Origin: an uncultured Ignavibacteriaceae bacterium
GTDB lineage: Bacteria > Bacteroidota > Ignavibacteria > Ignavibacteriales > Ignavibacteriaceae
NCBI GenBank assembly: GCA_963698525.1
Contig: CAVORE010000008.1
Location: 33,122-97,121 of the forward strand
Length of the DNA stretch: 64,000 nucleotides
Direction of reading: 5' to 3'
Numbering within the stretch: position 1 is the first letter of the stretch; every line of letters begins with the position of its first letter. Shown here in pieces: positions 11,111 to 45,197 of the stretch. Position numbers and translations under genes: made by a program. Below the pieces are notes generated by a model, which worked only from the letters and a program-made list of their open reading frames with translations, was not told the origin of the DNA and searched no databases.

Positions 11111-11213
11111 TAAATAAGAATTTTTTTAACAGCTAAATTAAATAGGAAAAATTTTACTTTTATTTTAAAACCATAATGAGATTTATTCAAATTAAGAACC
11201 ATCAGCAATTGCA

Positions 11214-21007: not shown

Positions 21008-22630
21008 ATGGAAAAACTTCTTCTCCTCGGTGCCGAAGCAATTGCTCAGGGCGCGATAGACGGGGGAATGTCTGGTATTTATGCTTATCCCGGTACACCT
21101 TCTACAGAAATAACTGAATATGTTCAACATAATAAAACGGCAATAGAGAGAAATATTCATCGGCAGTGGTCGGCTAATGAGAAGACTGCAATGGAAGCAG
21201 CTCTTGGAATGAGCTACGCTGGAAAACGTGCAATGGTTTGTATGAAGCACGTAGGATTAAATGTTGCTGCCGATGCGTTTATCAACTCTGCAATTACCGG
21301 TGTTAACGGCGGATTGGTTATCACAGTTGCAGATGATCCATCTATGCATTCATCTCAGAATGAACAGGACTCACGCTTCTTCGGAAAGTTTGCGATGATT
21401 CCAATCCTTGAACCTGCAAACCAGCAGGAAGCTTATGATATGGCTTATGAAGGTTTTGAGCTGTCTGAAAAATTCAAAATTCCTGTGTTGATAAGAATTA
21501 CAACCAGACTTTCTCATTCTCGCTCAGGAGTTGAAAGAAGGGAAATCAAAAAGGAAAATAATCTTACTTACCCCGAAGATCCTATTCAATTTGTTCTTCT
21601 TCCATCAAATGCAAGAAAGAGATACAAAGGATTGCTATCCATTCAATCTCTGATTGAGCAGGAATCGGAGCACTCAGTTTATAATACCTATTTTCCCGGA
21701 AGGGATAAATCACTCGGCATAATTGTTTGTGGAATTGCATTTAATTATTTGAAAGAAAATTATCAGAACAAAGGTTGTCCTCATCCAGTTCTTCAGATTA
21801 ATCAATATCCACTTCCTTTTACAAAAGTAGAAAAAATAGTTAATGAATGTGAAAAAGTTCTTGTTCTGGAAGATGGTTATCCATTTGTTGAAGAGCAGTT
21901 AAGAGGCTTCCTGAATATTAACGCAAATATTATTGGACGACTGAATGGCACAATTCCTCGTGACGGCGAATTGAATCCTGATATTGTTGCTAAAGCATTG
22001 GGCAAAGAAGTTAAACAAGGATTACCGGTTCCAAAAGTTGTTGCTAACCGTCCGCCTGAACTTTGTTCCGGTTGCAGTCACCGTGACATTTACAACGCAC
22101 TTAATGAAACGATGAAAGAATTCGGTAAGCAAAAAGTTTTTTCTGATATTGGTTGTTATACACTTGGTGCATTGCCTCCCTGGAATTCAATTAATTCTTG
22201 TGTTGATATGGGTGCATCAATCACCATGGCAAAAGGTGCTGCTGATGCAGGTGTTCGTCCTTCAATCGCAGTTATTGGTGATTCAACTTTCACACATAGC
22301 GGAATGACCGCGCTTCTTGATTGTGTATATGAGAATACTCCTGTTACAGTTATCATTTCGGATAATGCAACTACCGCAATGACAGGCGGACAGGCATCTC
22401 ACGCAACAGGAAGACTTGAAGAAATTTGCATCGGTCTAGGTGTTAAATCGGAACACGTTAAAGTTCTTACTCCTCTTCCTAAATATCATGAAGAGATGGT
22501 AAAATCCTTACGAGAAGAATTTCTTTATGAGGGAGTATCTGTAATTATTCCGAGAAGAGAGTGTATTGTGCAGGCAGTTGCGAAGAATAAGAAAGAAGGA
22601 AAATTGAAAAAAGAGGAGATTGAATCGTGA
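21008..22630 (+). CDS. iorA: Indolepyruvate:ferredoxin oxidoreductase, alpha (TPP-binding) subunit
   Basis: LLGAEAIAQGAIDGG..YAYPGTPSTEI at the N-terminus and the VIGDSTFTHSGMTALL TPP-binding motif. It is translationally coupled to the beta subunit with a 4-nt overlap. Confidence 0.8.
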   Translation: MEKLLLLGAEAIAQGAIDGGMSGIYAYPGTPSTEITEYVQHNKTAIERNIHRQWSANEKTAMEAALGMSYAGKRAMVCMKHVGLNVAADAFINSAITGVNGGLVITVADDPSMHSSQNEQDSRFFGKFAMIPILEPANQQEAYDMAYEGFELSEKFKIPVLIRITTRLSHSRSGVERREIKKENNLTYPEDPIQFVLLPSNARKRYKGLLSIQSLIEQESEHSVYNTYFPGRDKSLGIIVCGIAFNYLKENYQNKGCPHPVLQINQYPLPFTKVEKIVNECEKVLVLEDGYPFVEEQLRGFLNINANIIGRLNGTIPRDGELNPDIVAKALGKEVKQGLPVPKVVANRPPELCSGCSHRDIYNALNETMKEFGKQKVFSDIGCYTLGALPPWNSINSCVDMGASITMAKGAADAGVRPSIAVIGDSTFTHSGMTALLDCVYENTPVTVIISDNATTAMTGGQASHATGRLEEICIGLGVKSEHVKVLTPLPKYHEEMVKSLREEFLYEGVSVIIPRRECIVQAVAKNKKEGKLKKEEIES

Positions 22631-23232
22631 AATCAGATATAATCTTAGCAGGTGTCGGAGGTCAGGGAATACTTTCTATTGCTGCAACAATAGGAATGGC
22701 AGCCCTTGAAAATCATCTTCATTTAAAACAGGCAGAAGTTCACGGGATGAGTCAGCGTGGTGGAGCCGTTCAATCTCATTTAAGAATTTCCCCGAACGAA
22801 ATTTCAAGCGACTTAATTCCACTCGGTAGAGCCGATTTAATTATTTCCGTTGAGCCGATGGAGTCACTTCGTTACCTACCATGGCTTTCTGAAAATGGCT
22901 GGCTGGTTACAAATACAACTCCTTTTGTCAACATACCTGATTATCCAGATATGAAAGAGCTGCTTGCAGAAATAGAAAAACTTCCTCATCATATTGCTAT
23001 AAATGCAGATGAAATTGCCCGGCAGGTAAAGTCGCTCCGCTCATCAAATATAGTAATGCTGGGTGCTGCTTCACCTTTTCTGGACATTCCTTATGAAAGT
23101 CTTGAAATTGGAATAAAAAAAATCTTTGGAAGAAAAGGGGAGAAGATCGTTCAGTTAAATTTGGATGCGTTAAAAGCTGGTCGTGCATTTGCCTTAGAGC
23201 ATACACCGGTGGATTTAAGTAATGGTAAATAG
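22627..23232 (+). CDS. iorB: Indolepyruvate:ferredoxin oxidoreductase, beta subunit
   Basis: DIILAGVGGQGILSIA is the pyruvate/ketoisovalerate oxidoreductase gamma-type domain. 201 aa, directly after iorA. Confidence 0.8.
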   Translation: MKSDIILAGVGGQGILSIAATIGMAALENHLHLKQAEVHGMSQRGGAVQSHLRISPNEISSDLIPLGRADLIISVEPMESLRYLPWLSENGWLVTNTTPFVNIPDYPDMKELLAEIEKLPHHIAINADEIARQVKSLRSSNIVMLGAASPFLDIPYESLEIGIKKIFGRKGEKIVQLNLDALKAGRAFALEHTPVDLSNGK

Positions 23233-23728: not shown

Positions 23729-25261
23729 GTGTCTAAAAAATTTACTTGTTTTGTAGTTGGTGAAGATTCACTTCTTATTAAATGCTGTGAAACTCTCCTG
23801 GATAAGTCGCACGATATATTTGGAATAATCTCATCAAGTCAATCAATAAAAAAATGGGCATCAGAAAATAACATAAAAGTTTATGAGTTAGACGCAAACC
23901 TTATTAGTGTATTATCTTCAAAACCTTTCGATTACCTTTTCAGTATTACAAATTTGTCTATCCTAAAAGATGAAGTTATTAATTCTCCTCGTAAAGCGGC
24001 AATAAACTTTCACGACGGACCGTTACCAAAATATGCAGGAATCAACGCAACATCCTGGGCATTGATGAATCGGGAAAAGAAATATGCAATTACGTGGCAT
24101 GAAATAACCAGTGAAATTGATAAGGGCGATATTTTAAAGCAGGTTCATTTGGTTATTGATGATGGAGAAATTGCACTTTCACTGAATGCAAAATGTTTTG
24201 AAGCAGGAGCTTCTGCTTTTGAAGAATTAGTTGAGGAACTAGCTAATGGAACTGTCCAGAGAATTAAACAGGATTTTTCAAAAAGATCATATTTCGGCAA
24301 ATTTAAAAGACCTGATTCTGCTGCAATTATTGATTGGAACAGTGATGCTGAAAGTATTTTGTCATTTGTTCATGCACTAAATTTTGGCAGGTATAGAAAT
24401 CCTCTTGGACTGCCGAAAATAAAAATTGGTGAAAAGTATTTTCTTATTCCGGAACTTGAAATTACTAATCCAAAATCAAAAGAGGCACCTGGAACAATTA
24501 CGGCAGCCAATGAAAAATACTTTGAGGTTTCAACAAAGACTAATTCTGTAAGATTTAGTAAAGTTCTTTCAATTGATGGTTTAGCAATTTCATTGGTGAA
24601 CCTGATCGAGCAATTTTCATTAAAATCAGGAACAAGATTAAATCAGGTTGACGGCGGATCCTCTAAAAGCATAACGGAATTCAATTCAGTTATTGCGAAT
24701 AAAGAAAATTATTGGATTAGAGAGCTAACAAATCTTGAAGCGATTAATTTTAATTATACAAAGCGAAATTCGAAAAGTGATCATTTAGCTGATCCAGCCG
24801 AAGAATATTTAAAGATTTCTAAAAAAGCTTTTAGCACATTTAAGATTGATGAGAACCAACTTCCAACACTTATCCTTTCTCTTTTTTCAATCTTCATTGG
24901 TCGCCACAGCGGAAAGAATAATTTTACTCTTGGATATTCTAATTCAGAATTACTGGAGAATCAGAAAAAGTTCGGAAACCTATTTGCAGAGATTGTTCCC
25001 GCTAATATTTATTTTAATCCTGAAGAGAGCCTTAATGATGCTGTAATTAAGTTAATTGAGGGATTTAATAAAATTGATAAGAATAAAACATTCATAAAAG
25101 ATGTTTTCCCACGTCATCCGGAATTATTACACTTTGTAAATGAAGGCGGAGAACCTGTTTATCCAGTTGCTGCTGTGATCATTAAAGATCAATCTGATTT
25201 TAAGCCTCAGCCAAGCAACGTATTGACTTTTGTCATTTCCTCAGATTGTAGTACCGATTAA
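23729..25261 (+). CDS. NRPS starter fragment: formyltransferase (F) domain + C-terminal lobe of a condensation-like domain (frame-broken from the next ORF)
   Basis: GTG start. INFHDGPLPKYAGINA (Fmt Asn/His motif), HEITSEIDKGDIL (catalytic Asp region) and an Fmt C-terminal subdomain (IDWNSDAESILSFVHAL). From about residue 320, ENYWIRELTNLEAINFNYTKR... is typical of the second half of C domains. There is no HHxxxDG. Confidence 0.75.
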   Translation: MSKKFTCFVVGEDSLLIKCCETLLDKSHDIFGIISSSQSIKKWASENNIKVYELDANLISVLSSKPFDYLFSITNLSILKDEVINSPRKAAINFHDGPLPKYAGINATSWALMNREKKYAITWHEITSEIDKGDILKQVHLVIDDGEIALSLNAKCFEAGASAFEELVEELANGTVQRIKQDFSKRSYFGKFKRPDSAAIIDWNSDAESILSFVHALNFGRYRNPLGLPKIKIGEKYFLIPELEITNPKSKEAPGTITAANEKYFEVSTKTNSVRFSKVLSIDGLAISLVNLIEQFSLKSGTRLNQVDGGSSKSITEFNSVIANKENYWIRELTNLEAINFNYTKRNSKSDHLADPAEEYLKISKKAFSTFKIDENQLPTLILSLFSIFIGRHSGKNNFTLGYSNSELLENQKKFGNLFAEIVPANIYFNPEESLNDAVIKLIEGFNKIDKNKTFIKDVFPRHPELLHFVNEGGEPVYPVAAVIIKDQSDFKPQPSNVLTFVISSDCSTD

Positions 25262-28200
25262 GTTTGTTTACAACTCTGCTTCAATAAGTGTTGATGATAT
25301 GAAGTTGTTAAAAGAACAGTTTACAGCTTTTATTGAGGGAACCTCTGTTCTTAAAGAATCACCCATAACCGAAATTGCTATTATCTCTTCGGAAGAAAAA
25401 AGAAAATTATTAGAAGAATGGAATAAAACGAACACGACATATTCGATTGATAAATGCATTCATCAGCTTTTTGAAGAACAGGTTGTTAAAACTCCTTCGG
25501 CTATTGCTGTCTTCTGCAAAGGTGAATCACTTACTTATGATGAACTTAACAAAAAATCAAATCAGCTCGCAAAGAAATTGAAGAAATCAGGCGTCGGTGC
25601 AGAAACGCTCATTGGCATTAGTTTGCATAGATCAGTTGATATGATGATAGCTATTCTCGGAGTGTTAAAAGCCGGCGGAGCGTATGTCCCTCTTGATCCT
25701 GAATTCCCTAAAGACAGAATTTTATATATGGTTCAGGATTCAAAATGTTCCGTAATCATTACGGAACAAAAATTAAAGAAAGAATTTGACTCTGTTAAAG
25801 CAAAGCTCATTTCAATTGATAATGATTGGAAAGAAATTTCAAAAGAATCAGGTGACAATTCTAAAAGTAGTGTTACGTCAAATAATCTATCATATGTAAT
25901 TTATACATCAGGCTCAACCGGAAAGCCAAAAGGTGTAATGGTTCAACATAGGAATGTAGTTAACTTTTTTGCCGGAATGGATAAGCACATCAAATTCGAT
26001 CCTCCTGGTGTATGGCTTGCAGTTACCAGTTTATCCTTCGATATCTCGGTACTGGAATTACTATGGACGTTGTGCCGTGGATTCAAAGTCGTTATATATG
26101 CTGAAGAAGATTGGAAATCAGAACAACTAAAATCAACAATACTAAAGAATCAGCAGAGAATTGACTTCAGCTTGTTTTATTTTTCAAGTTACGCGAGTGA
26201 AAATCCGAATGAGAAATACCGGTTATTAGTTGAAGGAGCAAAATTCGCAGACCAAAACAGGTTTACTGCAGTCTGGACTCCTGAAAGACATTTTCATGAC
26301 TTTGGTGGATTGTATCCGAATCCAGCAGTAACAAGCGCTGCCCTGGCAACGATAACGAAACATTTGAGAATTATGAGCGGTAGTTGTGTATCCCCCTTGC
26401 ATCATCCTCTAAGAATTGCCGAGGACTGGTCAATAGTTGATAACCTATCAAATGGAAGAGTAGGAATTTCTTTTGCAGCAGGATGGCAACCTATAGATTT
26501 TACTTTGATGCCTCAAAATTACGAGAGGCGCAAGGATATAATGTTTGAGCAGATTGAAATTATTAAGAAATTATGGAGAGGTGAAGCCGTTGAGTTCGAT
26601 TCACCGATTGGTAAAAAGGTAGGAATAAAAACATTACCGAGGCCGATTCAGAAAGAACTTCCTGTATGGATAACAGCAGCTAATAATCCAGAAACATTTC
26701 AGATGGCAGGTGAAAAGGGATTTTATTTGTTAACTCACCTTCTCGGGCAATCAATCGAGGAGCTTGAAGATAAGATTGCAATTTATCGCAAAGCATGGAA
26801 ATCAAACGGACATCCTGGAAATGGTTACATTTCTCTTATGCTTCATACATTTGTGGGAGAAAATCTTGAAGAAGTAAAGGAAACGGTTCGTGAACCCATG
26901 AAACATTATCTTAACAGCGCTGTAAACCTGGTAAAGCTTGCATCGTGGTATTTTCCCACCTATAATAAACTTAACGATAGTTTTAATGAAGCTGCAGAAC
27001 ACCTTACTAAAGAGGATATGGACGCGATCCTAAATCATTCATTTGAAAGATACTTTGAAACCAGTGCCTTGCTTGGAACTCCTGAAACTTGCCTGGAAAC
27101 AGTAGAAAAACTAAAGAAAGTTGGCGTCGATGAAGCCGCATGCCTTATTGACTTTGGTGTTGAATCTGAAAAAGTGCTTTCGCATTTGCAGTATCTCAAT
27201 GCAGTTAAAACGCTGGCAAATTTAGGAGTCCGTGAACAAGCTGCCGTGGATGAAGATGAAAATTATTCCATTACTGAATTAATTAATCAACAGAAAGTTA
27301 CTCACTTACAATGTACTCCTTCGATGGCTAAAATTTTAATGCTTGAAGTTGAGTCTAAAAGAGCACTAAAGAATATTAAATGCTTAATGATTGGCGGAGA
27401 GGCTTTCCCGGTTAATCTGGCACAAGAATTAAAAGAAACCGTCAGCGGTAAAATATTGAATATGTATGGACCAACAGAAACTACAGTCTGGTCTTCAATT
27501 CATAAAATTGATGAACTAAACGATTCAATACCTATTGGCAAACCGATTGCTAATACTGAAATTTTTATATTAGATAATTACCATCAGTTAGTACCTATCG
27601 GAGTTCCGGGAGAGTTGTGTATAGGAGGAGATGGGGTTGTTAGGGGATATTTTGAAAGACCCGAACTGACAAAGGAAAAATTCATAACATTCTCATTAAA
27701 CGGCACACAAATCCAGAAACGGATTTACAAAACAGGTGATCTTGCCTGCTACAGAAAAGATGGAACAATAGAATTTCTTGGACGACTTGATCATCAGGTC
27801 AAAATTCGTGGCTACAGAATTGAATTAGGAGAGATTGAAACAGCACTCGGGAAACACTCACAAATTAGGGAAGCAGTTGTAGTTGTACGGGAAGATAAAC
27901 CGGGAGAGAAAAGATTAGTTGCTTACCTGGTCGGATCTTCTGGCGTAAATCCTTCTACAATAAATCTTAGGAATTTTCTGAAAGAATCGCTCCCGGAGTA
28001 TATGATCCCTTCACTTTTTTCTTTCGTGGAAGAATTTCCGCTAACTCCAAATGGTAAAGTAGATAGGAATGCCTTGCCTGAACCTGAATCTGAGAGACCG
28101 GCGCTGGACAAAGCATTTGAAACACCGCAAACCCCTACTGAAGTAACACTTGCTAATTTATGGAGTCAGGTTCTTGGTATTGAAGGAATTGGGCTTCACG

Positions 28201-28412
28201 ATAACTTCTTTGATTTGGGTGGTCATTCATTATCAGCGGTTCAGATAACTGTAAAAATTCATCAGTCATACAACATAGATTTATCTTTGCAAACATTCTT
28301 TCAGTCCTCTACTCTTAAAGAACTTGCAAATGCAATTGATGAAAAATTACTTGAGCAGGCTTCCGGTGAGCATTTAGAACAACTTTTACGTGAAGTTGAA
28401 AATTCAAAATAA
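25230..28412 (+). CDS. NRPS A-T didomain; A domain (Gly-like code) interrupted by a luciferase-like monooxygenase
   Basis: LSYVIYTSGSTGKPKGV (A3), SLSFDISVLELLW (A4), then a 355-aa LLM insert, then HLQCTPSMA (A5), NMYGPTETTVWSS, YKTGDL, GRLDHQVKIRGYRIELGEIE (A8), LPEYMIP (A9), PNGKVDR (A10) and FFDLGGHSLSAVQ (carrier Ser codon 28227-28229). Confidence 0.85.
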   Translation: MSFPQIVVPIKFVYNSASISVDDMKLLKEQFTAFIEGTSVLKESPITEIAIISSEEKRKLLEEWNKTNTTYSIDKCIHQLFEEQVVKTPSAIAVFCKGESLTYDELNKKSNQLAKKLKKSGVGAETLIGISLHRSVDMMIAILGVLKAGGAYVPLDPEFPKDRILYMVQDSKCSVIITEQKLKKEFDSVKAKLISIDNDWKEISKESGDNSKSSVTSNNLSYVIYTSGSTGKPKGVMVQHRNVVNFFAGMDKHIKFDPPGVWLAVTSLSFDISVLELLWTLCRGFKVVIYAEEDWKSEQLKSTILKNQQRIDFSLFYFSSYASENPNEKYRLLVEGAKFADQNRFTAVWTPERHFHDFGGLYPNPAVTSAALATITKHLRIMSGSCVSPLHHPLRIAEDWSIVDNLSNGRVGISFAAGWQPIDFTLMPQNYERRKDIMFEQIEIIKKLWRGEAVEFDSPIGKKVGIKTLPRPIQKELPVWITAANNPETFQMAGEKGFYLLTHLLGQSIEELEDKIAIYRKAWKSNGHPGNGYISLMLHTFVGENLEEVKETVREPMKHYLNSAVNLVKLASWYFPTYNKLNDSFNEAAEHLTKEDMDAILNHSFERYFETSALLGTPETCLETVEKLKKVGVDEAACLIDFGVESEKVLSHLQYLNAVKTLANLGVREQAAVDEDENYSITELINQQKVTHLQCTPSMAKILMLEVESKRALKNIKCLMIGGEAFPVNLAQELKETVSGKILNMYGPTETTVWSSIHKIDELNDSIPIGKPIANTEIFILDNYHQLVPIGVPGELCIGGDGVVRGYFERPELTKEKFITFSLNGTQIQKRIYKTGDLACYRKDGTIEFLGRLDHQVKIRGYRIELGEIETALGKHSQIREAVVVVREDKPGEKRLVAYLVGSSGVNPSTINLRNFLKESLPEYMIPSLFSFVEEFPLTPNGKVDRNALPEPESERPALDKAFETPQTPTEVTLANLWSQVLGIEGIGLHDNFFDLGGHSLSAVQITVKIHQSYNIDLSLQTFFQSSTLKELANAIDEKLLEQASGEHLEQLLREVENSK
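26160..27230 (+). other. Luciferase-like (FMN/F420-type) monooxygenase domain inserted between A4 and A5 (approximate bounds)
   Basis: IDFSLFYFSSYASENPNEKYRLLVEGAKFADQNRFTAVWTPERHFHDFGGLYPNPAVTSAALA...GRVGISFAAGWQP... This is a TIM-barrel LLM signature of the natural-product LLM type. Confidence 0.75.
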
Positions 28413-28463: not shown

Positions 28464-29414
28464 ATGAGGGATGAATTAAAGAGTTTCACTTATCTGGAAG
28501 AAATATCTTCAACACTAAAAAACATTTCCTTTCCAACAAGATTTGCAGTAGAAGTAACCGCCGAGTGCAATCTTAAATGTGCCATGTGTCATCATCCGAA
28601 TATGGTAAGACCGAAAGGGAGAATGCCATTTGAACTCTGGAAAAAATGTGCTGACGAGATTGCAGAAATTTCTCCTTCTACACAGTGCTGGTTCTCTTTT
28701 TGCGGAGAACCTCTTCTTGAACCGGAACATTTGATAAAAATGATTAAGTACGGAAAGTCAGTCGGGCTTAAATCACTTAATATCAACACTAATGGAATGT
28801 TATTAACTCCCGAATGGGCCGAACCAATTATAGATTCGGGTGTGGACCTTGTTGTAATTGGCATTGATGGATTTTCTGCAGAAGTGTTTGAGAAAATAAG
28901 GATCGAAGCTAAAAGAGATGTTGTTTATTCTAATGTTGAGTATTTTCTTGAAGTGAAGAAAAAGCGCGGTTTCGGACCCGAGGTCCAGGTTCAGTTTATA
29001 GAGATGGAAGAAAACAAACATGAGCTTGACACATTTAAAAAATATTGGCTGCAGCGAAGTGCAACTATTAAAGCAAGAAGGATGTTAAGCTGGGGAGGAA
29101 AATTTGATACGCAGTTATGTGTACCTGAAGATAATCGTATTCCATGTCCATGGTCATGCACAATGATGCACGTATTCTGGGATGGAAGGGTGCCCCGTTG
29201 TCCCGGTGATACAGAAGGGGATGAAGGTGCAGGTAATGCATGGGATGAACCGTTATTTAAGCTTTGGGGAAAACTGAGTCCTTATCGGGATCTGCATTTG
29301 GAGCATCGGTTTGATGAACTTCCTGACCGTTGCCAAAATTGTACCGACTGGATGACAGGTTCTGCTGAAAGGATAAAACCGTCAGAGACTAGTGAACTAA
29401 ATGGTGGTATTTGA
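28464..29414 (+). CDS. Radical SAM enzyme with truncated SPASM/twitch-type domain
   Basis: EVTAECNLKCAMCHH is CxxxCxxC. The C-terminal region has CPWSCTMMHVFWDGRVPRC (GxxxxC) and CQNC. 316 aa, embedded between NRPS genes. Confidence 0.8.
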   Translation: MRDELKSFTYLEEISSTLKNISFPTRFAVEVTAECNLKCAMCHHPNMVRPKGRMPFELWKKCADEIAEISPSTQCWFSFCGEPLLEPEHLIKMIKYGKSVGLKSLNINTNGMLLTPEWAEPIIDSGVDLVVIGIDGFSAEVFEKIRIEAKRDVVYSNVEYFLEVKKKRGFGPEVQVQFIEMEENKHELDTFKKYWLQRSATIKARRMLSWGGKFDTQLCVPEDNRIPCPWSCTMMHVFWDGRVPRCPGDTEGDEGAGNAWDEPLFKLWGKLSPYRDLHLEHRFDELPDRCQNCTDWMTGSAERIKPSETSELNGGI

Positions 29415-29430: not shown

Positions 29431-30471
29431 ATGAAATCAATATTATATCTATGTGGTGCAGGTAATGCTGAAGGTGTTCGTCTTGCATTAAGAGTTAATG
29501 AGAAAGAACACCGTTGGGAAAAAATAGTAATTCTTGATGATGATATAAATAAGATTGGCAAGAATATACTTGGGGTGGAAATAGTTGGTCCATTTGATCA
29601 TTTAACTCAGGTTGATAAAACTAATGAACAAGTAGTTAACTTAGTTGCCAGAACAACCACTAAAAGATATAATGCTGCTGAAAAAATTAAAAAGTACGGA
29701 TTACCATTTATATCTTTGATTGACCCTAATGTTGATACCTGGGGTGTTGAATACAGTGGCGATGTAACTATTTATCAGAACGTTACTTTTTCTGCTGGTG
29801 CATTCATAGACGAAGGTTCAGTTGTTTTTACAGGTGCAGTTGTTGGTCACGGTTGTAAAGTTGGTAAATGTTGTGTTATAGCTCCGGGTGCCGTTCTCAA
29901 TGCTCGTGTCGAACTTGAAGATGGAGTTTACATGGGAACAAATGCATCAATTCTTCCTGATCTTAAAGTTGGTGCTTGGGCAACTATCGGAATTAATTCA
30001 GCTATCGTACAAAATGTACCCGAAGGTGCAACTGCAATGGGAGTTCCTGCAGAATTAGTTATGTTACCGAACAGTTCTCCGTTTCCTGGTTTACCGGTAC
30101 GAAAGGAAAATATAGATCAAAAAGTAATAATGCCAAAAGCTACTGCGAAGAGACCAAAGTTAAATACAATATTCAAAGAACCGAAGACTGAAATTGACAT
30201 AGCCATCACAGAAATATTCTCGCAAGTGCTTAAATTAGATAAAATTGGTATTGATGATAACTTTTTTGATATAGGGGGTCATTCACTCTCAGCAGTTCAG
30301 ATTGCATTTCAACTTAAGAAAAAATTCAATATAAATGTTCCTCTTCAAACATTTTTCGATTTTCCGACGATTGCCGGATTATCCAATAAGATTGAAACTG
30401 AATTAATCAGTAGTGCTGATGGCGCTGATCTTGAAAAATTATTGAATGAAATAGAGAATAAATCTCACTGA
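29431..30471 (+). CDS. NeuD/PglD-like left-handed beta-helix acyltransferase fused to a C-terminal carrier (T) domain
   Basis: The ATG at 29431 follows AAGGAG (29418-29423); the alternative ATG at 29401 overlaps the upstream gene. The N-terminal LCGAGNAEGV...ILDDD...G..I.G is the NeuD-type Rossmann-like lobe. Hexapeptide repeats run through GAFIDEGSVVFTGAVVGHGCKVGKCCVIAPGAVLNARVELEDGVYMGTNASI. The C-terminal FFDIGGHSLSAVQIAFQL is the phosphopantetheine site. Confidence 0.75.
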   Translation: MKSILYLCGAGNAEGVRLALRVNEKEHRWEKIVILDDDINKIGKNILGVEIVGPFDHLTQVDKTNEQVVNLVARTTTKRYNAAEKIKKYGLPFISLIDPNVDTWGVEYSGDVTIYQNVTFSAGAFIDEGSVVFTGAVVGHGCKVGKCCVIAPGAVLNARVELEDGVYMGTNASILPDLKVGAWATIGINSAIVQNVPEGATAMGVPAELVMLPNSSPFPGLPVRKENIDQKVIMPKATAKRPKLNTIFKEPKTEIDIAITEIFSQVLKLDKIGIDDNFFDIGGHSLSAVQIAFQLKKKFNINVPLQTFFDFPTIAGLSNKIETELISSADGADLEKLLNEIENKSH

Positions 30472-30580: not shown

Positions 30581-33500
30581 ATGGATATAAAAGAACGTCT
30601 TAAAAATCTTACGCCGGAACAACGGTCGGTATTGTTAAAAAAACTAAGTGAAGACAGAGCCGGTCAGGAATCACCCAAAAGCATGTTTCCTGAAGTAATT
30701 ATGAACACCGAAGAACGTTATGAGACTTTTCCATTGAACAATCTTCAGCAAGCATATTTAATTGGACGTTCCAACGCATTTGAGATGGGAAATATTCCTT
30801 CTGCTGCTTATGTAGAGCTTGAATGTAAAAATCTTGATCTTGATAGATTCAAAGCTGCATGGATGAAACTGATCAACAGACACGAAATTCTTCGCTCCAT
30901 AGTTAATGAAGACTATACACAACAGATACTTAAAGAATCTCCTGAATTCAAAATTCAAATTAATGATTTAAGATCTGAAGACGGTGAGTTGTTAGAAACC
31001 GAATTGAAATCTATAAAGAAAAGAATGCTGCATACGGTTAAGAGTGCCGGAACCTGGCCATTGTTCGAAGTTCAGGTTTCAAAAATAAAAGATGGAATTG
31101 ATCATGTCCATTTTAAACTCGACTTACTAAACTTTGATGCTGGAAGCATAGCAATACTTTTTAACGAGTTAAAAGAATTTTATTTAGATGCAAACAAAAA
31201 TCTTCCCGGATTAGAACTTTCATACAGAGATTATCTGATTGCCGAGAAAAAATTCGAGGAAACAGAATTCTTCACACGTTCAAAAGAATACTGGATGAAC
31301 CGTCTTGCAACTATTCCTCCGGCACCACAATTACCGCTTCGAATAAGTTCGAAGGAAGTTGAAAAGCCTTATTTCATCAGAAGAATAAAAACTATTAATT
31401 CTGATAACTGGTTTAAGTTGAAAGCGAAAGCTGCCCGTGAAGGTTTGACCCCAACAGTTTTGCTGTTAACTGCGTACGCCGAAATTCTTGGTTTGTGGAG
31501 CACCTCGTTAAGGTTCTCAATTAACATTCCTTTGTTCAATCGTTTTCCTCTTCATCCGGATGTAAATAAAATAATCGGAGATTTTTCTACTGTAGAAATT
31601 CTTGAGGTTGATAGAACGGAGAAAGAGTCATTTATAGATCGGGCGAAAAAAATTCACAAACAATTAATTGCTGATCTTGACAGTCGTTACTTTGATGGTG
31701 TTGCAGTTTTCAGAGAGTTAGCCAAAATAAATGAAGACGATTTCAGAAAAGGGGTTCCGGTAATTTTCACTAGTTTAATCGATCATAGTTTTACTGAAAA
31801 CATCAGCCAGATTGGTAGAATTGTTGACAGTGTAAACCAGACCGCACATGTCTGGCTCGATCTTCATGTTGATGAGGTTGATGGTAATTTGGTTGTCAAA
31901 TTTGATGCTGTTGAAGAGCTCTTCGAAGAATCGGTTCTTGATGATATGTTAACAACTTATATTGACCTGCTCTCAAAACTAGCAACTAATGAACAAACCT
32001 GGGAGAATAATAATTTAGCGTTGTTTCCTGCTAACCAATATGAGAAAAGACTAAAAGTAAACGATACCAATAAACCTGTACCGCAGGAACTTCTTCACTC
32101 CCTGTTTTCCAAAAAGGCAAAAGAGCAACCTGATCATCTGGCTGTAATCTCTTCAGAAAAAAGATTATCATTTAAAGAACTGGATGAGCTATCAAATCGG
32201 ATTGGAAATCATTTAAGAAAACTTGGAGCAAAGCCAGATAAACTTATTGCAATTATTATGGACAAAGGCTGGGAACAGGTTCCGGCAGTTTATGGAATTT
32301 TAAAAGCGGGTTCTGCCTATCTCCCGATCGATCCTGATTTCCCTGGCGACAGGATAAATCATTTGTTAATTGATGGTCAAGTTGAAATTATCCTAACTCA
32401 ATCCTGGATAAAAGACAGATTAGCTATTTCCGGAAACATTAATTGCTTTTCAATTGATAACGGAGATTTCGATGAAGCGGATTCAAAGGAACCCGCACCA
32501 ATACAGAAACCTGATAATCTGGCTTACGTTCTCTACACTTCAGGTTCAACCGGAAACCCAAAGGGTGTAATGATTGAACACCGCAGTGTTGTGAACCGGA
32601 TGCTTGATGTTAATGAGAGATACGGAGTAACAGAAACCGACAAAGCAATTGCACTTACAGCTCTTCAACATGATCTTTCTGTTTACGATTTATTTGGAAT
32701 GTTGATTGCTGGAGGCACAATTGTAATTCCAGAGAACGACAAACGACTTGACCCGGCTCATTGGGCAAAAATAATGAACGGAAATAAAGTAACTTTTTGG
32801 AATTCTGTTCCTGCATATCTTGAAATGTTGATTGACTATCTTGAAAACCAAAAAGACAAGAGCATAGTGCCGAATTCATTTAGAATGACTGTGCTTTCAG
32901 GTGACTGGATTCCAGTTTCAATTCCTGATCGCCTGCGAACTTTGATTCCAAAAATTCAAATTATTGGATCGGGTGGACCGACTGAAACAACAATCTGGGA
33001 TATTTACAACTTCATCGGTGAAGTCGATCCAAACTGGAAGAGTATTCCTTACGGTAAGCCACTAACAAACGCTTCTTATTATGTAATGAAAGATAATCTT
33101 GAAGAATGTCCTGAATTTGTTATTGGCGAATTATGTATTGGTGGAGCGGGACTTGCGAGAGGATTCTGGAAAGATGCGGAAAGGACAAATGATAAATTTA
33201 TTTTACATCCTTCAACTGGTGAAAGATTATATAAGAGCGGCGACCTCGGTTATTTCCGACCTGACGGAATGATACAAATTGCGGGAAGGAAAGATTTTCA
33301 GGTTAAGATCCGCGGATTAAGAGTTGAACTTGGTGAAATCGAATCAGCTTTGGAAAAACATCCGGATGTTAAAGATGCAGTTGTAACCACTATTGGTGAA
33401 TCCCAAACTAACAAACGGCTCGTAGGTTATATTGTAACTTCTAAAGAATTTAATGATGCAGTAGTTCAAACTGCCAGCAAACCGAAACAAGAGACTTTGT

Positions 33501-34912
33501 CCAATGACCAATCCGTAAGAGATGGTTCTCTTCTCTCTGAAGTTCAAAAGATGGAATTAAAACTTCAGCATCTTGAGATTAGACAGAACGATGATGATAA
33601 ACAGAAGATTGAACTGATAAAGCCCCCGACCAATAACCGGTTCAAAGAAAAATATCTTTCCAGACAGACTTACCGTACATTTCTTAACGGAAAAGAAAAA
33701 ATTTCATTTAAAAAGTTTAGTGAGTTTCTAAATTGTCTTGCTCAATTAAATTCCGACGAGCTTCCTTTTCCTAAATACAGATATCCCTCCGCAGGAAGCT
33801 TGTATCCCGTTCAAGTTTATCTTTATATAAAATCCGGGAAAATTGAAGGTGTTGATGGCGGGGCATATTACTATAATCCAAAAGATCACCGTTTGGTTTT
33901 GTTATCTTCTAACCCCAGGATATTGAAGAATATTCATACTGTAAACAATTACGAAACATTTGAAGATTCCGCTTTCTCAATCTTCCTTGTTGCACAACTG
34001 AAAGCTATTGCTCCTGTTTATGGCACAAAGACAATATCTAAAAGAACCAAGAAATCAGCATTTAAAACTTTGCTTTCCGGTCTTCACACAATGATAGTAG
34101 GCATGAAACAGCAGCAAAGTTCGGCGGATGTTTCAAGAGATTTCTGTGTTATTGAAGCCGGTTACATGGGTCAACTACTAATGACATCGGCTCAGGAAAA
34201 TCAGGTTGGTCTTTGCCCGGTTGGCGGAGTAGATTTTGATAAAATAAGAGAATACTTTGATTTGGAAGCAACACACTTATACATTCATGGATTTATGGGT
34301 GGCGCAATTTCTATTGGACAAACTAAATCTTTTTCATTAGTTGCAGATTTGCCATCTGCATCCGCACAGAAGAATACTAAGCAAGCATTTATTGAAGAAG
34401 TTAAAAATTATCTTCAGGATTCTATTCCTGATTACATGGTTCCTGCAAACTTTGTGATATTAGATGTGCTTCCGTTAACACCAAACGGTAAAGTTGATAG
34501 AAAAGCTCTTCCAATTCCAGAGGATGAAAATAGTTCGGTTTCGATCCAAATGCCTGAAGGAGAAATGAGTCCTTCTACTGAAAAAATTTCAAAGATTGTG
34601 CAAAGTATTTTGAAGATGGAAAGTATAAACCCTTTGGTTAATTTATTTAACGTGGGCGCTACTTCTATACAGATTATTATGATCACAAATCAACTAGAAA
34701 GTAAGCTTGGATTCAGACCGCGAATAGATGAGATTTATGCTGATCCAACTATCTCTGCCATTGCAAAAAAATACGATAAATTTGCGGGAATAGCATCGAA
34801 GAGTGGCAGCTCAAATGGAAAGAGCATCGAAGAGGATAAAACACTTGAATTACTGAAGAAAGTGAAATCACTTTCACAGGAAGATGTAAAATCAAAATTA
34901 AAGCAGATTTAA
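30581..34912 (+). CDS. NRPS module Cy-A(Cys-like)-[Ox]-T (thiazoline/thiazole-forming)
   Basis: FPLNNLQQAYLIGR and DLLNFDAGS (DxxxxDxxS, codons from 31121) identify a heterocyclisation domain. The A domain has LAYVLYTSGSTGNPKGV, HDLSVYDLFG, WNSVPA, LSGDWIP, GGPTETTIW and GRKDFQVKIRGLRVELGEIE. The Ox insert follows, then IPDYMVP...PNGKVDR. The carrier site is FNVGATSIQ (Ser codon 34664-34666). Confidence 0.85.
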   Translation: MDIKERLKNLTPEQRSVLLKKLSEDRAGQESPKSMFPEVIMNTEERYETFPLNNLQQAYLIGRSNAFEMGNIPSAAYVELECKNLDLDRFKAAWMKLINRHEILRSIVNEDYTQQILKESPEFKIQINDLRSEDGELLETELKSIKKRMLHTVKSAGTWPLFEVQVSKIKDGIDHVHFKLDLLNFDAGSIAILFNELKEFYLDANKNLPGLELSYRDYLIAEKKFEETEFFTRSKEYWMNRLATIPPAPQLPLRISSKEVEKPYFIRRIKTINSDNWFKLKAKAAREGLTPTVLLLTAYAEILGLWSTSLRFSINIPLFNRFPLHPDVNKIIGDFSTVEILEVDRTEKESFIDRAKKIHKQLIADLDSRYFDGVAVFRELAKINEDDFRKGVPVIFTSLIDHSFTENISQIGRIVDSVNQTAHVWLDLHVDEVDGNLVVKFDAVEELFEESVLDDMLTTYIDLLSKLATNEQTWENNNLALFPANQYEKRLKVNDTNKPVPQELLHSLFSKKAKEQPDHLAVISSEKRLSFKELDELSNRIGNHLRKLGAKPDKLIAIIMDKGWEQVPAVYGILKAGSAYLPIDPDFPGDRINHLLIDGQVEIILTQSWIKDRLAISGNINCFSIDNGDFDEADSKEPAPIQKPDNLAYVLYTSGSTGNPKGVMIEHRSVVNRMLDVNERYGVTETDKAIALTALQHDLSVYDLFGMLIAGGTIVIPENDKRLDPAHWAKIMNGNKVTFWNSVPAYLEMLIDYLENQKDKSIVPNSFRMTVLSGDWIPVSIPDRLRTLIPKIQIIGSGGPTETTIWDIYNFIGEVDPNWKSIPYGKPLTNASYYVMKDNLEECPEFVIGELCIGGAGLARGFWKDAERTNDKFILHPSTGERLYKSGDLGYFRPDGMIQIAGRKDFQVKIRGLRVELGEIESALEKHPDVKDAVVTTIGESQTNKRLVGYIVTSKEFNDAVVQTASKPKQETLSNDQSVRDGSLLSEVQKMELKLQHLEIRQNDDDKQKIELIKPPTNNRFKEKYLSRQTYRTFLNGKEKISFKKFSEFLNCLAQLNSDELPFPKYRYPSAGSLYPVQVYLYIKSGKIEGVDGGAYYYNPKDHRLVLLSSNPRILKNIHTVNNYETFEDSAFSIFLVAQLKAIAPVYGTKTISKRTKKSAFKTLLSGLHTMIVGMKQQQSSADVSRDFCVIEAGYMGQLLMTSAQENQVGLCPVGGVDFDKIREYFDLEATHLYIHGFMGGAISIGQTKSFSLVADLPSASAQKNTKQAFIEEVKNYLQDSIPDYMVPANFVILDVLPLTPNGKVDRKALPIPEDENSSVSIQMPEGEMSPSTEKISKIVQSILKMESINPLVNLFNVGATSIQIIMITNQLESKLGFRPRIDEIYADPTISAIAKKYDKFAGIASKSGSSNGKSIEEDKTLELLKKVKSLSQEDVKSKLKQI
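33640..34330 (+). other. FMN-dependent oxidase (nitroreductase/SagB-like Ox) domain inserted between A8 and A9 (approximate bounds)
   Basis: LSRQTYRTF...PKYRYPSAGSLYPVQVYLYI...GAYYYNPKDHRLVLL...EAGYMGQLLM...GLCPVGG matches the Ox domains of thiazole-forming NRPS modules. Confidence 0.7.
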
Positions 34913-34924: not shown

Positions 34925-37900
34925 ATGAACTTATCTTATGATGAAATAGCCAGGCTTACATCTGAACAACGTGCTCTATTAGAAAAGCTGATGAAAGAAG
35001 AGGGGCTGGATGTTTCAAAGTTACCAATACCACTCCGGCAAAAAGAATCAAAAATCCCTCTAACTCCAACTCAAAAAAGATTCTGGTTTCTTGAAAAAAT
35101 TCATCCCGGGACCTCAACATATAATATTCCAATTTTCTTCAAGATAAAAGGCAAGATTTCCATTGAGATTCTTGAAAAAAGTTTCAAGCAGCTTGTCCAA
35201 AGACATAGTTTATTAAGAACTAAATTTATTGAAATTGATAGTGAACCATACCAGGAAATTTTACAGCATGATAATTTCAGAATAAATGTGAGCGAGCTTA
35301 ATAAGAACGAACTCTCCGACAAAGATCCCGATGTTCAGAAAGTTCTGACTAACGAATTACAAAAACCTTTTGACTTTATTAATGATTTTTTGTTGAGAAT
35401 TCTTCTTATAAAATGCAATAAGAACGAATTTATCTTATCAATCGTAACGCATCATCTTTATGCTGATGGTTGGTCCATTCGTATTTTATTAAAAGAATTA
35501 GATGAGATTTACAACTCATTCAATGAAAAGAAAAATGCCTCCCTGAAAGAGCTCACAATTGATTTTCCGGATTATGCCTGCTGGCTCGATGATCATCTGG
35601 ATGACAGCAGCTTAGAGGAACAATTAAAATTCTGGAAAGAAAAACTTAACGGCGCATCATTAATCTTAGATTTACCAACGGATTTTAACCGTCCTGCTGT
35701 AGAAAAATATAATGGTGCTGCATATCATTTTGAAATTGACACTACCAGGGCTGGGATGATTTCTGCTTTGACAAAGAAGTTGAAAGTGACAAAGTTTGTA
35801 TTAATAATGAGCTTTTTCCAGGGGTTACTACATAAATATTCTAATCAGAATGATATAATTGTGGCAACTGCCATTTCCAACAGGAGTAGATCGGAAGTTG
35901 AAGATATCATAGGTAACTTTTCAAACAATTTGTTAATACGTACAGATTTTTCCGAAGATCCTAATTTAGAAAAAATATCTGCTCACGTTCATCAATCTTT
36001 CCTTGAAGCACTGCAAAACAAGGATCTTCCGTTTGAAAAGCTCGTTGAACAAATTAATGTTGGCCGTGACTTAAGCCGGAATGCACTTTTTCAGTTTATG
36101 ATACTTCTACACCAGGGAAGGCACGATGAGTTAATAAACTTTTCCGGAACAGAAATCTGTGAACTCGAGCCGGTTATCACCACTTCAAAATTCGATATGT
36201 TGCTTGAGATATATGATGGGAAGGATTCTTTAAGAGGTATACTTGAATACAATTCTGATTTGTTCAAATCAACAACCATTGAGCTAATGGTAAAACATTT
36301 TTTCCGTTTGATTGAAATTTGGTCTGAGCATACAAATCTTCCATTTTCAGAGATTGATATTCTAACTGATGATGAAAAAAATCTTTTAGCTGAGATTAAT
36401 AATACTGACGCTATTTATCCCAAAAAATTACGACTTCATGATCTTTTTGAAATGCAGGCCGAGAAAACCCCGGATAAAATAGCTGTTGAGTTTGAAGGAA
36501 AATTTTTAACTTATTCTGATCTTAATAGCAAAGCAAATAAGGTAGCTAATTATTTACGAAAGCTTGGAATTGAAGAAAGCCAATTTGTAGGCATTTGTGT
36601 CGATCGCTCAATCGAGATGCTGATTGGAATTATAGGAATTCTAAAAGCCGGATGCGCTTATATTCCTTTAGATTCGGGTTTTCCATCGAACAGGTTAAAC
36701 TATATGCTTGAAGATGCCAAAGTAAAGATACTGCTTACTTCAAATAAACTAAAAGATATCTTCCATAAAGTCGATTTAAAATGTGTGTTACTAGATGATG
36801 ATTGGAAACTTCTTGAAAAAGAAAATGAAGAGAATTTAATTTCAAAAATATCTTCAGAAGATCTTGCATATGTAATTTACACTTCAGGTTCAACGGGAAA
36901 TCCTAAAGGCGTGCAGATAAAGCATAAATCCGTTGTTAACTTTTTACTTTCTATGCAGATGGAACCCGGAATAACTTCTGAAGATGTTCTTCTTTCCGTC
37001 ACAACAATTTCCTTCGATATTTCTGTGCTGGAAATGTTTTTACCCATTATTTCCGGTGCCAAGCTGGTTATTGCTGGAAAAGCTGTTACATGGGATGGTA
37101 AACAATTACTAAAATTACTGCATGATACAAATGCTAACGTAATGCAGGCAACACCATCAACCTGGCGGCTGATGATTGAATCAGGCTGGAGATCGACCCT
37201 TAACTTAAAAATGCTGTGCGGTGGTGAGGCACTTTCAATTGAACTGGCCAACCAAATGCTTGATAGAGGTGGTTCACTCTGGAATATGTATGGTCCAACC
37301 GAAACAACAATCTGGTCTTCTGTTAAAAAAATAGAGCCCAGAAGTGAGTCCGTTTTAATCGGGCCACCAATTGCGAATACGCAATTTTATATTCTTGATA
37401 ATGATTTGAAACCTGTTCCATTCGGTATACCCGGTGAACTTTTTATTGGTGGTGACGGACTTGCAAAAGGATATCTGTACAGGCCTGAATTAACTAATGA
37501 AAAATTTATATCAAATCCTTTCACAAACTCGGATTCGAAATTATACAGAACAGGGGATTTGACCAGATTCAGGAATAATGGCGACATTGAATTTCTTGGA
37601 CGTTTAGATTATCAGGTAAAGATAAGAGGTTTCAGAATTGAGCTTGGTGAAATTGAAAATGTGCTTTCAGAACATCCTGAGATAAAAAATGTAGCTGTGA
37701 ATGCCTGGTCTGATGTAAGTGGAGATAAAAAATTAGTTGCTTATTACACTTCTATAAATGGAACTTCCATTGAAGTAACCAACTTAAGATCTTATTTAAC
37801 AAATAAGCTGCCCGATTATATGGTCCCATCTTTCTTTGTGAAGATGGGTGAATTACCAGTTACTCCAAACAAGAAAATAGATCGAAAAGCTTTACCGGCA

Positions 37901-44630: not shown

Positions 44631-45101
44631 CTATTTTAATTTCTTGATGATCTTTGCTGGAACACCGGCAACGATCGTGTTTGCCGGGACATCCTTTGTA
44701 ACGACTGCACCGGCACCAACAATGGCATTTTCACCTACCGTAACTCCGCACATAATTGTTGATGAAGAACCGATTGAAGCCCCCTTCTTTATAAAAGTCT
44801 CGATAACTTTCCAGTCTGAGTCTATTTGCATTGAACCATCTTCGTTCGTTGCTCTTGGGTTCTTATCATTAATGAATGTAACGTTATGACCAACAAAAAC
44901 ATTATCCTCAATGTGCACACCTTCGCAAATAAATGTGTGAGATGATATTTTACAGTTCTTGCCAATGAAAGCATTCTTCTGAATTTCAACAAATGTTCCC
45001 ACTTTTGTTCCGTCGTCAATTGAACAGCCGTAAAGATTCACAAAGTCGTAAATCTTTACGTCCTTCCCAAGTTTAACGTTATTGATAATTTGCTTGCTCA
45101 T
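44631..45101 (-). CDS. Hexapeptide-repeat N-acetyltransferase (WbpD/WlbB-like)
   Basis: 156 aa, nearly all left-handed beta-helix repeats ([30 protein letters not shown]...[17 protein letters not shown]). It follows an oxidoreductase and an aminotransferase in the same operon. Confidence 0.75.
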
Positions 45102-45197
45102 ATAATTTTTTGATTGTTTAATTAAAATTATTTGAATTGTTCAAAGGAAAAGAAAGTTTTTTGACAAACGTGGTTTATTTATCAAAGCCTTTAATCA

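Follow-up and report, generated by a model that had tools for sequence, protein, structure and literature searches.

The LbH-T gene and its product

The subject of this analysis is a gene in a 64,000-nt stretch of contig CAVORE010000008.1 (assembly GCA_963698525.1) from an uncultured Ignavibacteriaceae bacterium. The whole stretch is called the window below. The gene (29431-30471, + strand) belongs to a nonribosomal peptide synthetase (NRPS) cluster and encodes a 346 aa protein in which an acyltransferase of the PglD/PerB fold, containing a left-handed beta-helix (LbH), is followed by a linker, a peptidyl carrier protein (PCP) domain and a tail. It is designated LbH-T, with T for the carrier (thiolation) domain. 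Immediately upstream lies the gene for a 316 aa radical S-adenosylmethionine (rSAM) protein of the SPASM(twitch) type (28464-29414, + strand), assigned by Pfam, motif and synteny. The rSAM and LbH proteins, together with a carrier the only invariant parts, constitute a conserved, widespread and previously undescribed unit made of known kinds of parts. Throughout, A, C, Cy, KS, F and TE denote adenylation, condensation, heterocyclisation, ketosynthase, formyltransferase and thioesterase domains, LLM a luciferase-like monooxygenase domain, Ox an FMN oxidase domain and Fc a region after F with faint similarity to a condensation domain. L-numbers stand for comparison loci and P-numbers for homologous proteins.

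The LbH-T open reading frame (ORF) is uninterrupted. It has its own ribosome-binding site, GGAG located 7 nt before ATG 29431, starts 17 nt downstream of the rSAM stop codon and ends with a stop codon at 30469-30471. The start codon is at 29431 and not at the upstream ATG 29401, because all homologs open uniformly with MK(S/T)xLYLCGAGN.

The acyltransferase domain (aa 1-211; 29431-30063, + strand) was delimited by Foldseek and conserved residues. It comprises an N-terminal alpha/beta lobe with a GAGNAEG loop and the strand end IVILDDD, followed by the beta-helix, on which Pfam Hexapep scores 35.4 bits (cutoff 27). The NCBIfam model for NeuD/PglB/VioB (TIGR03570) matches residues 16-207 with 133.3 bits (E=8e-39) and thus does not reach its curated cutoff of 160.8; an LbH paralog from Geobacter stays likewise below this cutoff with 144.6 bits. 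In an AlphaFold2 model built from 57 homologs (mean predicted local distance difference test score, pLDDT, 88.7), residues 1-211 superpose on PglB-ATD, PerB, WeeI, PglD and VioB with target-normalised template modelling (TM) scores of 0.85-0.91 in Foldseek. The matching PDB entries are 4m99, 4ea7, 4m9c, 3bsy and 7txp; for 4m99, 4ea7, 7txp and 3bsy, the root-mean-square deviation is about 2 Å, and the two-domain fold of the NeuD/PglB/VioB family is present. In an alignment with PerB, His140 (codon 29848-29850) falls on the catalytic His141, whose H141N and H141A variants are deposited as 4eaa and 4eab; PglD has His125 as its catalytic histidine. Among the 57 homologs, His140 is invariant, as are C8, G9, N12, E14, G15, R17, W29, D36, D37, R79, N157, R159, Y167 and N171. 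Modelled fold and conserved residues confirm the assignment of the N-terminal part as a NeuD/PglD-type acyltransferase, which had first been made by a sequence-only reading of this DNA.

Beyond the acyltransferase, the linker (aa 212-247; 30064-30171, + strand) spans about 40 aa, is disordered at residues 226-241 (pLDDT <50) and resembles in its final part an NRPS A-to-T linker, as seen in an alignment with the linker of the A(LLM)-T protein encoded upstream in the same cluster. The T domain (30172-30405, + strand) was assigned by Pfam PP-binding, which covers residues 259-319 with 60.2 bits (cutoff 20.8), and by sequence matches to PCP domains in the PDB (PvdL, LgrA, TycC3 and PaxA). Ser285 (codon 30283-30285) lies in the motif GGHSL, and both G282 and S285 are invariant in the 57 homologs. 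In the model, helices at 254-267, 285-299, 306-310 and 314-328 form a four-helix carrier fold that matches 2md9 (target-normalised TM 0.84) and 7b2b (0.76); the PCP structures include PaxA T1 with its docking tail. The earlier reading had asked for a PP-binding profile search, a look at the serine context and a structure prediction. All three agree with its proposal of a carrier, and the C-terminal part is confirmed, by profile and predicted fold, as a true carrier domain.

The protein ends with a helical tail, ELISSADGADLEKLLNEIENKSH (30406-30468, + strand), which is common to the A(LLM)-T carrier and to orthologs and contains a modelled helix at residues 331-345. Paralogy between the LbH-T and A(LLM)-T carriers had been claimed as well, which holds only in part. 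They are 44.5% identical over 110 aa (111 bits), and the two T domains of a 2143-aa protein of the cluster are 41-42% identical to the LbH-T carrier over 71-77 aa (69-72 bits). The core thus barely exceeds the level of other carriers in the cluster, and what the two specifically share is the pre-T linker and a 25-aa tail (…DLEKLLNEIE… versus …HLEQLLREVE…), which account for the longer alignment. In orthologous clusters, the same tail is found on every T domain that closes a protein, and the protein following LbH-T opens with a conserved 45-50-aa extension, MDIKERLKNL(S/T)PEQRxLLLK(K/R)L, before its Cy or C domain. According to Pfam, none of the window proteins begins with a TubC_N docking domain; at L079, a downstream protein carries one. 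The tail of LbH-T may act as a docking element.

A two-gene unit and its carriers

A search of 5.8 billion proteins yielded 682 hits at E<=1e-5. The best 120 of them comprise 75 LbH-T, eight LbH-T-TE, two LbH-x-T and 35 LbH-only proteins, so that the fusion to a carrier is kept in 85 of 120 from more than 10 phyla. Along with the clean ORF, this rules out an artefact of a missed stop codon or frameshift, against which the fusion was to be checked. In one of the LbH-x-T proteins, P0050 (locus L018), only the C-terminal subdomain of an A domain is left between LbH and T. Its motif A10 lysine (Lys517) is replaced by Thr, and the subdomain is dead.

Scanning one genome per species provided 66 loci in Ignavibacteria, Gemmatimonadota, Planctomycetota, Acidobacteriota, Geobacter/Geomonas, Myxococcota, Rhodobacteraceae, Gammaproteobacteria, Spirochaetota, Actinomycetes and Firmicutes. 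Cultured carriers of the unit are Geobacter sp. AOG1, Roseobacter sp. SK209-2-6 and Aliisedimentitalea sp. MJ-SS2. The nearest named relatives of the window protein are from Ignavibacteriaceae (72% identity). The unit amounts to about 680 protein clusters at 90% identity; a library search with the full LbH-T profile is dominated by NRPS T domains and gives no clean family size. No curated Pfam or NCBIfam model names the LbH-T fusion or its rSAM partner, and full-text literature searches found neither a paper on the fusion nor one that describes the unit, in line with the earlier statement that LbH-T is not a standard NRPS part. Consequently, current genome-mining tools recognise in the unit no more than an AslB-like radical SAM protein next to a sugar O-acyltransferase and mis-predict the starter of these clusters.

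The rSAM partner is the most constant neighbour. In 70 of 71 loci, the LbH gene is directly preceded by a gene of this type (~310 aa), the sole exception being a contig that begins inside the LbH gene, and the pairing is also kept in all loci added later. When the flanking ORFs of 76 loci were clustered all against all, LbH (76) and rSAM (74) were the only universal families; a third universal gene was sought in this set and not found, the next real family occurring in at most 12 loci. In the window protein, Pfam assigns Radical_SAM with 58.9 bits, and SPASM is borderline with 21.2 bits at a cutoff of 21.5. The CX3CX2C motif reads CNLKCAMC (C35, C39, C42). An alignment of 45 sequences shows four invariant C-terminal cysteines (C228, C246, C290 and C293) and a better conservation than in LbH, with 64-84% identity across phyla and up to 91% to the closest homolog. 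The protein falls into no named subfamily, as its best NCBIfam matches reach at most 96 bits at cutoffs of 250-400. Its fold neighbours are MoaA, BlsE, BtrN, DesII, SkfB, CteB, SuiB, viperin, anSME and EpeE. Since TM is about 0.6 to many of these SPASM/twitch enzymes, the structure comparison singles out no reaction.

Two further observations concern rSAM genes. P0234, a fragment of 414 aa on a 2.8-kb contig, appears to combine an A-domain end, a T-like domain and rSAM in one protein; its T motif is GGEAH without serine, and the fusion is either real or an artefact. Upstream of the window cluster, two adjoining genes (14285-17966, - strand) encode B12-binding radical SAM proteins, and such a gene is found near the unit in L080, too.

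A carrier appears to be the third constant of the unit, beside rSAM and LbH: It can be fused, separate or the T domain of a neighbouring module. Most LbH genes have one fused T, L045 and L058 have T-T, and some have T-TE. Nine Acidobacteria-type loci (L024, L026, L028, L034, L035, L038, L046, L051 and L064) contain rSAM, LbH without T and, directly after LbH, an LDSL ORF of about 95 aa with the invariant motif TVLxG…(D/E)S. Seven of these nine also encode, usually as the next gene, a VOC protein resembling methylmalonyl-CoA epimerase (42-45 bits, under the cutoff). Pfam finds no match on the ~95-aa ORFs, a profile comparison with the PDB gives an acyl carrier protein (ACP) at E=0.03, and hhalign against the T profile E=4e-4 with 34% probability; these weak matches suggest that the ORF is probably an ACP.

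At four loci, LbH lacks T and adjoins a glycine module (see below). L076 encodes a carbamoyltransferase, rSAM, LbH and C-A(LLM)-T; L077, a glycosyltransferase-rich locus, rSAM, LbH and F-Fc-A-T-TE; L069 LbH, F, Fc-A-T-T-TE and rSAM; and L080 a phosphopantetheinyl transferase (PPTase), a type II thioesterase (TEII), rSAM, LbH and C-A-T-T-Cy-A…. The adjoining glycine module has a tandem T-T in L080 and L069 and a single T in L076 and L077. LbH-only proteins end with a conserved helix, ALxKLxxAQ(Q/E)KF. A comparison of L079 with L080 is instructive: the LbH domains are 86% identical, L079 having LbH-T followed by Cy-A_Cys(Ox)-T, and L080 a free LbH followed by C-A_Gly-T-T-Cy-A_Cys. In L080 and L069, the fused T is replaced by the tandem carrier of the glycine module.

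A compact version of six genes was observed in Geobacter sp. AOG1 (L004/L016, locus 5271-11749): A, T, rSAM, LbH, formyltransferase and LbH-T-TE. Its A domain is DltA-like and has the code DLFSLCLIAK.

Glycine modules, position and possible mechanisms

Stachelhaus codes were read by aligning each A domain to GrsA-PheA; the reference sequence returned its published code DAWTIAAICK as a control. The code for glycine is DILQLGLIWK. Next to the unit, the codes all come near it: DILQLGMIWK (L001 and L013), DILQVGMVWK (L012/L072), DILQLGMVWK (L069 and L080), DIIQLGMVWK (L077) and (DIL)QMGMVWK (A(LLM) of the window and L076). By these codes, the adjoining A domains almost always read as glycine-specific. 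They occur in Fibrobacterota, Alphaproteobacteria, Gemmatimonadota, a deltaproteobacterial genome, Ignavibacteria and further metagenome contigs.

In the window, the glycine-specific domain belongs to a formyl-glycine starter module F-Fc-A_Gly(LLM)-T (23729-28412, + strand; Pfam, NCBIfam), whose code DIL-QMGMVWK, obtained by alignment plus hand reading, is near the glycine code. The module is split by a frameshift at about 25247-25256: an F-Fc ORF (23729-25261) overlaps an A_Gly(LLM)-T ORF (25230-28412), with the frame change between 25246 and 25257. Orthologs in L006 (1559 aa, aligning across the frame change) and L002 (1563 aa) are single ORFs, and the change may stem from a sequencing error, mark a pseudogene or reflect a real split. 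The LLM domain is inserted between motifs A4 and A5, the arrangement of MtaG/MelG. Monooxygenase domains inserted in this way into Gly A domains hydroxylate the glycyl C-alpha (PMC10204066). Chemistry at the C-alpha of tethered glycine is therefore already part of the repertoire of these clusters.

Downstream of LbH-T, a Cy-A_Cys(Ox)-T module with a 50-aa N-terminal extension is encoded (30581-34912, + strand; Pfam). Its Cy motif DLLNFDAGS, its nitroreductase-type Ox domain and the code DLYNVSSI, near that for Cys, identify a thiazole-forming module, which is the likely recipient of the unit held on the LbH-T carrier. The last protein, C-A-T-C-A-T (34925-41356, + strand; Pfam), contains two Gly-like modules (codes DILQLGMI-K and DILALGMV-K) and closes with T; no TE or reductase domain was found in the window NRPS cluster.

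LbH-T is encoded directly upstream of a protein opening with KS (L001, L008, L011 and L032), C (L002, L003, L007, L013 and L055) or Cy (the window, L006 and L079) in 12 of 16 assembly-line clusters. Its carrier hence stands directly before the first condensing domain, the place of a starter module. In L013 and L055, the C domain after LbH-T has the motif W(S/T)FHHIxxDGRS and is of the same type as C domains that receive formyl-Gly. The best PDB hits show only that the C domains following LbH-T are peptide-donor types and not starter C. The idea of an alternative starter, put forward in the sequence-only reading, gains from this position and from the tail that LbH-T shares with the T of the formyl-Gly module.

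Aberrant or incomplete modules are also present in these clusters. The three-gene alphaproteobacterial cluster L072 has a C domain (5722-8970) with HNxxxDS instead of HHxxxDG, which is probably inactive, and L080 (9191-15421) has NHxxxDA at this place. Modules without A occur as the terminal C-T-TE in L006 (15449-18013), C-T in L013 (17726-20299) and TubC_N-C-T in L079 (6604-8607). For such carriers, trans-loading is already required, and it seems to be common in these clusters.

The neighbourhood of the unit is different elsewhere. Flanks of at least 8 kb on either side are available for 33 loci. NRPS-type domains are present in 14 of these, and the other 19 are lone cassettes, in which the rSAM-LbH pair stands by itself and no A, C, F or TE domain is encoded nearby. 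In many lone cassettes (L017, L020-L023, L033, L036, L040, L042, L043, L053, L060, L062 and others), T is followed by an Arg-rich tail such as RRRRQARS or ARRQAMARRRR, not by an acidic one.

Upstream of the window cluster, indolepyruvate:ferredoxin oxidoreductase (IOR) alpha and beta are encoded (21008-23232, + strand; NCBIfam IOR_alpha 536 bits, IOR beta 308 bits). They are syntenic only in the window, L008 and L032, all from Ignavibacteria. IOR might supply arylacetyl-CoA, or the genes might be mere synteny; as a general acyl-CoA supplier, IOR is ruled out by its confinement to these three loci. The arylacetyl-CoA considered earlier as a possible substrate is thus linked to the unit through synteny in three Ignavibacteria loci only.

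On the other side, a trio on the - strand (44631-47350) encodes a hexapeptide acetyltransferase, a GFO/IDH/MocA oxidoreductase and a DegT aminotransferase and resembles WbpD/WbpB/WbpE, the route to 2,3-diacetamido sugars. A Wzy_C/TPR protein is encoded at 19039-20856. Trio and Wzy_C/TPR protein place the NRPS cluster within a cell-envelope glycan region. Paralogous outer-membrane proteins with a beta-barrel, thrombospondin type 3 repeats and an OmpA domain were found at 43221-44582 and 47597-49342. In such surroundings, and with PerB, PglD, VioB and WeeI as closest solved relatives, LbH-T might be regarded as an ordinary nucleotide-sugar N-acetyltransferase of a polysaccharide locus with an incidental carrier, or as an assembly artefact. 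This is very improbable and already at odds with the comparative data: The fusion is kept in dozens of lineages, rSAM and a carrier are always linked to LbH, the ORF is intact with its own ribosome-binding site, and the TIGR03570 cutoff is not reached. DegT homologs are absent within 10 kb in all 78 loci searched; the DegT gene of the window (46208-47350) lies on the opposite strand at a distance of 16 kb, next to a hexapeptide transferase of its own. The lack of a nearby DegT and the score under the cutoff rule out a classical sugar N-acetyltransferase.

We propose, at a probability of about one in three, that LbH-T is the carrier-bearing half of a two-enzyme unit, with rSAM as the other half, that tailors a glycyl thioester on a phosphopantetheine arm where peptide and polyketide synthesis begins, its T domain serving as second carrier of a glycine starter module. 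The data show what the domains are, that the catalytic residues are conserved, that rSAM is constantly paired with LbH, and which glycine codes and rules of position apply. For trans-loading, acyl donor, acylated atom, rSAM reaction and hand-over, we infer the following route. The Gly-specific A domain of F-Fc-A(LLM)-T would load the LbH-T carrier in trans. The fused LbH, as a PglD-type trimer with His140 as base, would then acylate the tethered unit from acyl-CoA; the simplest target would be the free glycyl amine, yielding N-acyl-Gly-S-T, the counterpart of N-formyl-Gly-S-T1. Next, rSAM would abstract hydrogen from C-alpha, which is activated in this peptide-like thioester, and functionalise the position. 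Via the C-terminal tail, the Cy domain of the protein that follows would receive the product, which would finally be placed beside a thiazole. The chain would then begin with a glycyl-thiazole that is N-acylated and modified at C-alpha, a counterpart to the formyl-(hydroxy)glycyl start from F-Fc-A_Gly(LLM)-T. Two variants are consistent with such a route: LbH-(dead A subdomain)-T of P0050 mirrors the order of F-A-T, and in L080 and L069, the carrier of the glycine module replaces the fused T.

Several facts weigh against this proposal. In L076 and L077, LbH without T is located beside a single-T A_Gly module that is already capped, by a C domain plus carbamoyltransferase in L076 and by an F domain in L077, so that simple N-capping would be redundant there. 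We know of no LbH enzyme that acylates a carrier-tethered amine; LpxA, LpxD and Pls/PosA, the carrier-dependent LbH enzymes, use the tethered acyl group as donor. Moreover, the highly conserved nucleotide-type N-lobe has no role in the route. The chief fact left unexplained is the lone cassettes, which have no local source to load glycine and are poorly fitted by every model.

The donor function of tethered acyl groups in known LbH enzymes suggests a reversed direction, which we regard as a tentative possibility: The T-bound glycyl or peptidyl thioester would be the acyl donor, as in LpxD or Pls/PosA, and LbH the catalyst of condensation or release. The phosphopantetheine arm would fill the channel used for CoA in PglD, and the N-lobe would bind a nucleotide-linked or glycan acceptor, perhaps made by rSAM, that offers an amine or a hydroxyl. 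The C-terminal end of the beta-helix is the ACP docking site in LpxD and the CoA entry in PglD-type enzymes, and it is here that T is fused. The N-lobe, with its Gly-rich loop and acidic strand end, would find a use, the nearest rSAM folds include the nucleotide- or sugar-acting MoaA, BlsE, BtrN, DesII and viperin, neither the window cluster nor L076 has a TE, and polysaccharide genes lie beside the unit in the window, L001, L002 and L077. A precedent are the Pls/PosA synthetases, which polymerise the amino acid activated by their own A and T domains and whose polymerisation domain is predicted to contain three LbH units with a packing similar to that in sugar-nucleotide acyltransferases (PMC10522769). 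A Geobacter homolog matches the corresponding model TIGR02353 weakly, with 26.8 bits, far from its cutoff of 423. However, T is located directly before condensing domains, in L080 even in line before Cy, where off-loading would compete with extension. LbH-T-TE and the F-Fc-A-T-TE of L077 make a release by LbH redundant, DegT-type aminotransferases are missing near the unit as stated above, and the lone cassettes would still lack a loader.

The lone cassettes would be self-sufficient only if LbH moved an acyl group from acyl-CoA or another nucleotide-linked ester to its own carrier thiol and rSAM remodelled it into an unusual starter. P0050, with LbH in place of the A core and a remnant subdomain without Lys517, the loading-module position before KS, C and Cy, the Geobacter LbH-T-TE, which could load, modify and release, and the IOR genes as potential providers of arylacetyl-CoA are compatible with this. 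Nevertheless, it is rather unlikely, as in L076, L077, L080 and L069, LbH without T is paired with carriers that are loaded in cis by Gly A domains. In the Geobacter cluster, A and T are encoded beside the first LbH, the downstream C domains are peptide-donor types, and no LbH thiol acyltransferase is known to us. Self-loading from acyl-CoA, which the earlier reading had considered, is weakened by these LbH genes beside A_Gly-T or A_Gly-T-T modules: A pure loader fits lone cassettes and LbH-(dead A)-T and is strained elsewhere. A pure N-cap is strained, too. It fits the chemistry of the family and the F-A-T parallel; the N-acylation of a tethered amine, also considered before, is possible but complicated by the F, C or carbamoyltransferase caps in the same clusters, beside which it would be redundant.

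If the cap is a variable prerequisite, LbH might act after rSAM. It would acylate, on O or S, a C-alpha group installed by rSAM or LLM on a glycyl thioester already N-capped by formyl, carbamoyl or acyl, and would thereby trap or activate alpha-hydroxy- or alpha-thio-glycine. The NeuD family includes O-acetyltransferases, and alpha-hydroxyglycine is chemically labile. Inserted monooxygenase domains produce this labile intermediate in related modules (PMC10204066). Such a function would explain why rSAM and LbH are inseparable and caps variable (F in L077 and L069, carbamoyltransferase plus C in L076, C in L080), and SkfB, CteB and EpeE, structural neighbours of rSAM, abstract C-alpha hydrogens. 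Its probability is low, yet the variant in which the group acylated by LbH comes from rSAM falls little short of our main proposal. Several points weigh against it: L072 and L001 have no obvious N-cap for the LbH-T carrier, LLM and rSAM would overlap in function where both occur, a precedent is lacking and the lone cassettes are not explained.

The comparative data narrow the options for the mechanism without settling them. As a tentative synthesis, the rSAM-LbH-carrier trio might functionalise the alpha-carbon of carrier-bound glycine without oxygen, while in lone pairs LbH might charge the carrier without an A domain, from acyl-CoA or an aminoacyl ester such as Gly-tRNA. If so, the trio would be the radical counterpart of flavin monooxygenase domains and of peptidylglycine hydroxylation. 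The sequence-only reading stands in part; it had lacked the rSAM partner, the glycine-specific A neighbours and the variants with unfused carriers. With its two to six genes, the unit could serve as a small test system for radical reactions of glycine bound to a carrier, for instance as the operon of Geobacter sp. AOG1 or as the alphaproteobacterial cluster of three genes.

Comparison with known systems

With PglD, PglB-ATD, PerB, VioB and WeeI (TIGR03570), LbH-T shares the two-lobe fold, the position of the catalytic His, the Gly-rich loop and the acidic strand end. In contrast to this family, it scores under the cutoff, has a C-terminal PCP, always an rSAM and never a DegT neighbour, and possesses its own invariant set including C8, E14, R17, W29, R79 and NARV. 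LpxA and LpxD are LbH trimers, as LbH-T presumably is, and take a phosphopantetheine-bound acyl group from a carrier, which in LpxD docks at the C-terminal end of the helix. There, the carrier is separate, whereas it is fused in LbH-T; the similarity of 32-36 bits is far under the cutoffs, and acceptor and context differ. The homopolymer synthetases Pls/PosA likewise combine the LbH acyltransferase fold with an NRPS carrier instead of a C domain. In these enzymes, three tandem LbH are located among six membrane helices C-terminal to A-T (PMC10522769). By contrast, LbH-T has a single soluble LbH, presumably a homotrimer, N-terminal to T and with a PglD-type N-lobe, and the sequence similarity is marginal. 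It belongs neither to Pls/PosA nor to LpxA/LpxD.

Glycine modules of the MtaG/MelG/SolF type perform C-alpha chemistry on carrier-bound glycine, as may the unit described here, and an A_Gly domain with LLM between A4 and A5 adjoins it. Those reactions are O2- and flavin-dependent and occur in cis, whereas the LbH-T unit employs rSAM and an acyltransferase and is also found without any LLM. GNAT-ACP didomains such as CurA AR-GNAT-ACP resemble LbH-T in having an acyl-CoA-type transferase and a carrier directly before the first condensing domain. However, the fold is unrelated, and GNAT decarboxylates malonyl and loads acetyl, whereas loading by LbH-T is doubtful in view of the variants beside A_Gly-loaded carriers.

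A further parallel are the F-A-T starters (LgrA; OzmO for formyl-glycine loading), in which, as in LbH-T, a transferase from sugar or tRNA metabolism was recruited to a carrier at the NRPS start, again with a link to glycine. F-Fc-A_Gly-T is encoded in the same cluster as LbH-T, and LbH-(A remnant)-T has the same order of parts. The differences concern the enzyme, a predicted LbH with acyl-CoA here and a formyltransferase with formyl-tetrahydrofolate there, the lack of a functional A domain in cis in LbH-T and its obligatory rSAM partner. If the proposed tailoring of a glycyl thioester is true, formylation domains and GNAT loaders would be joined by a third means of priming or capping the starter of an assembly line.

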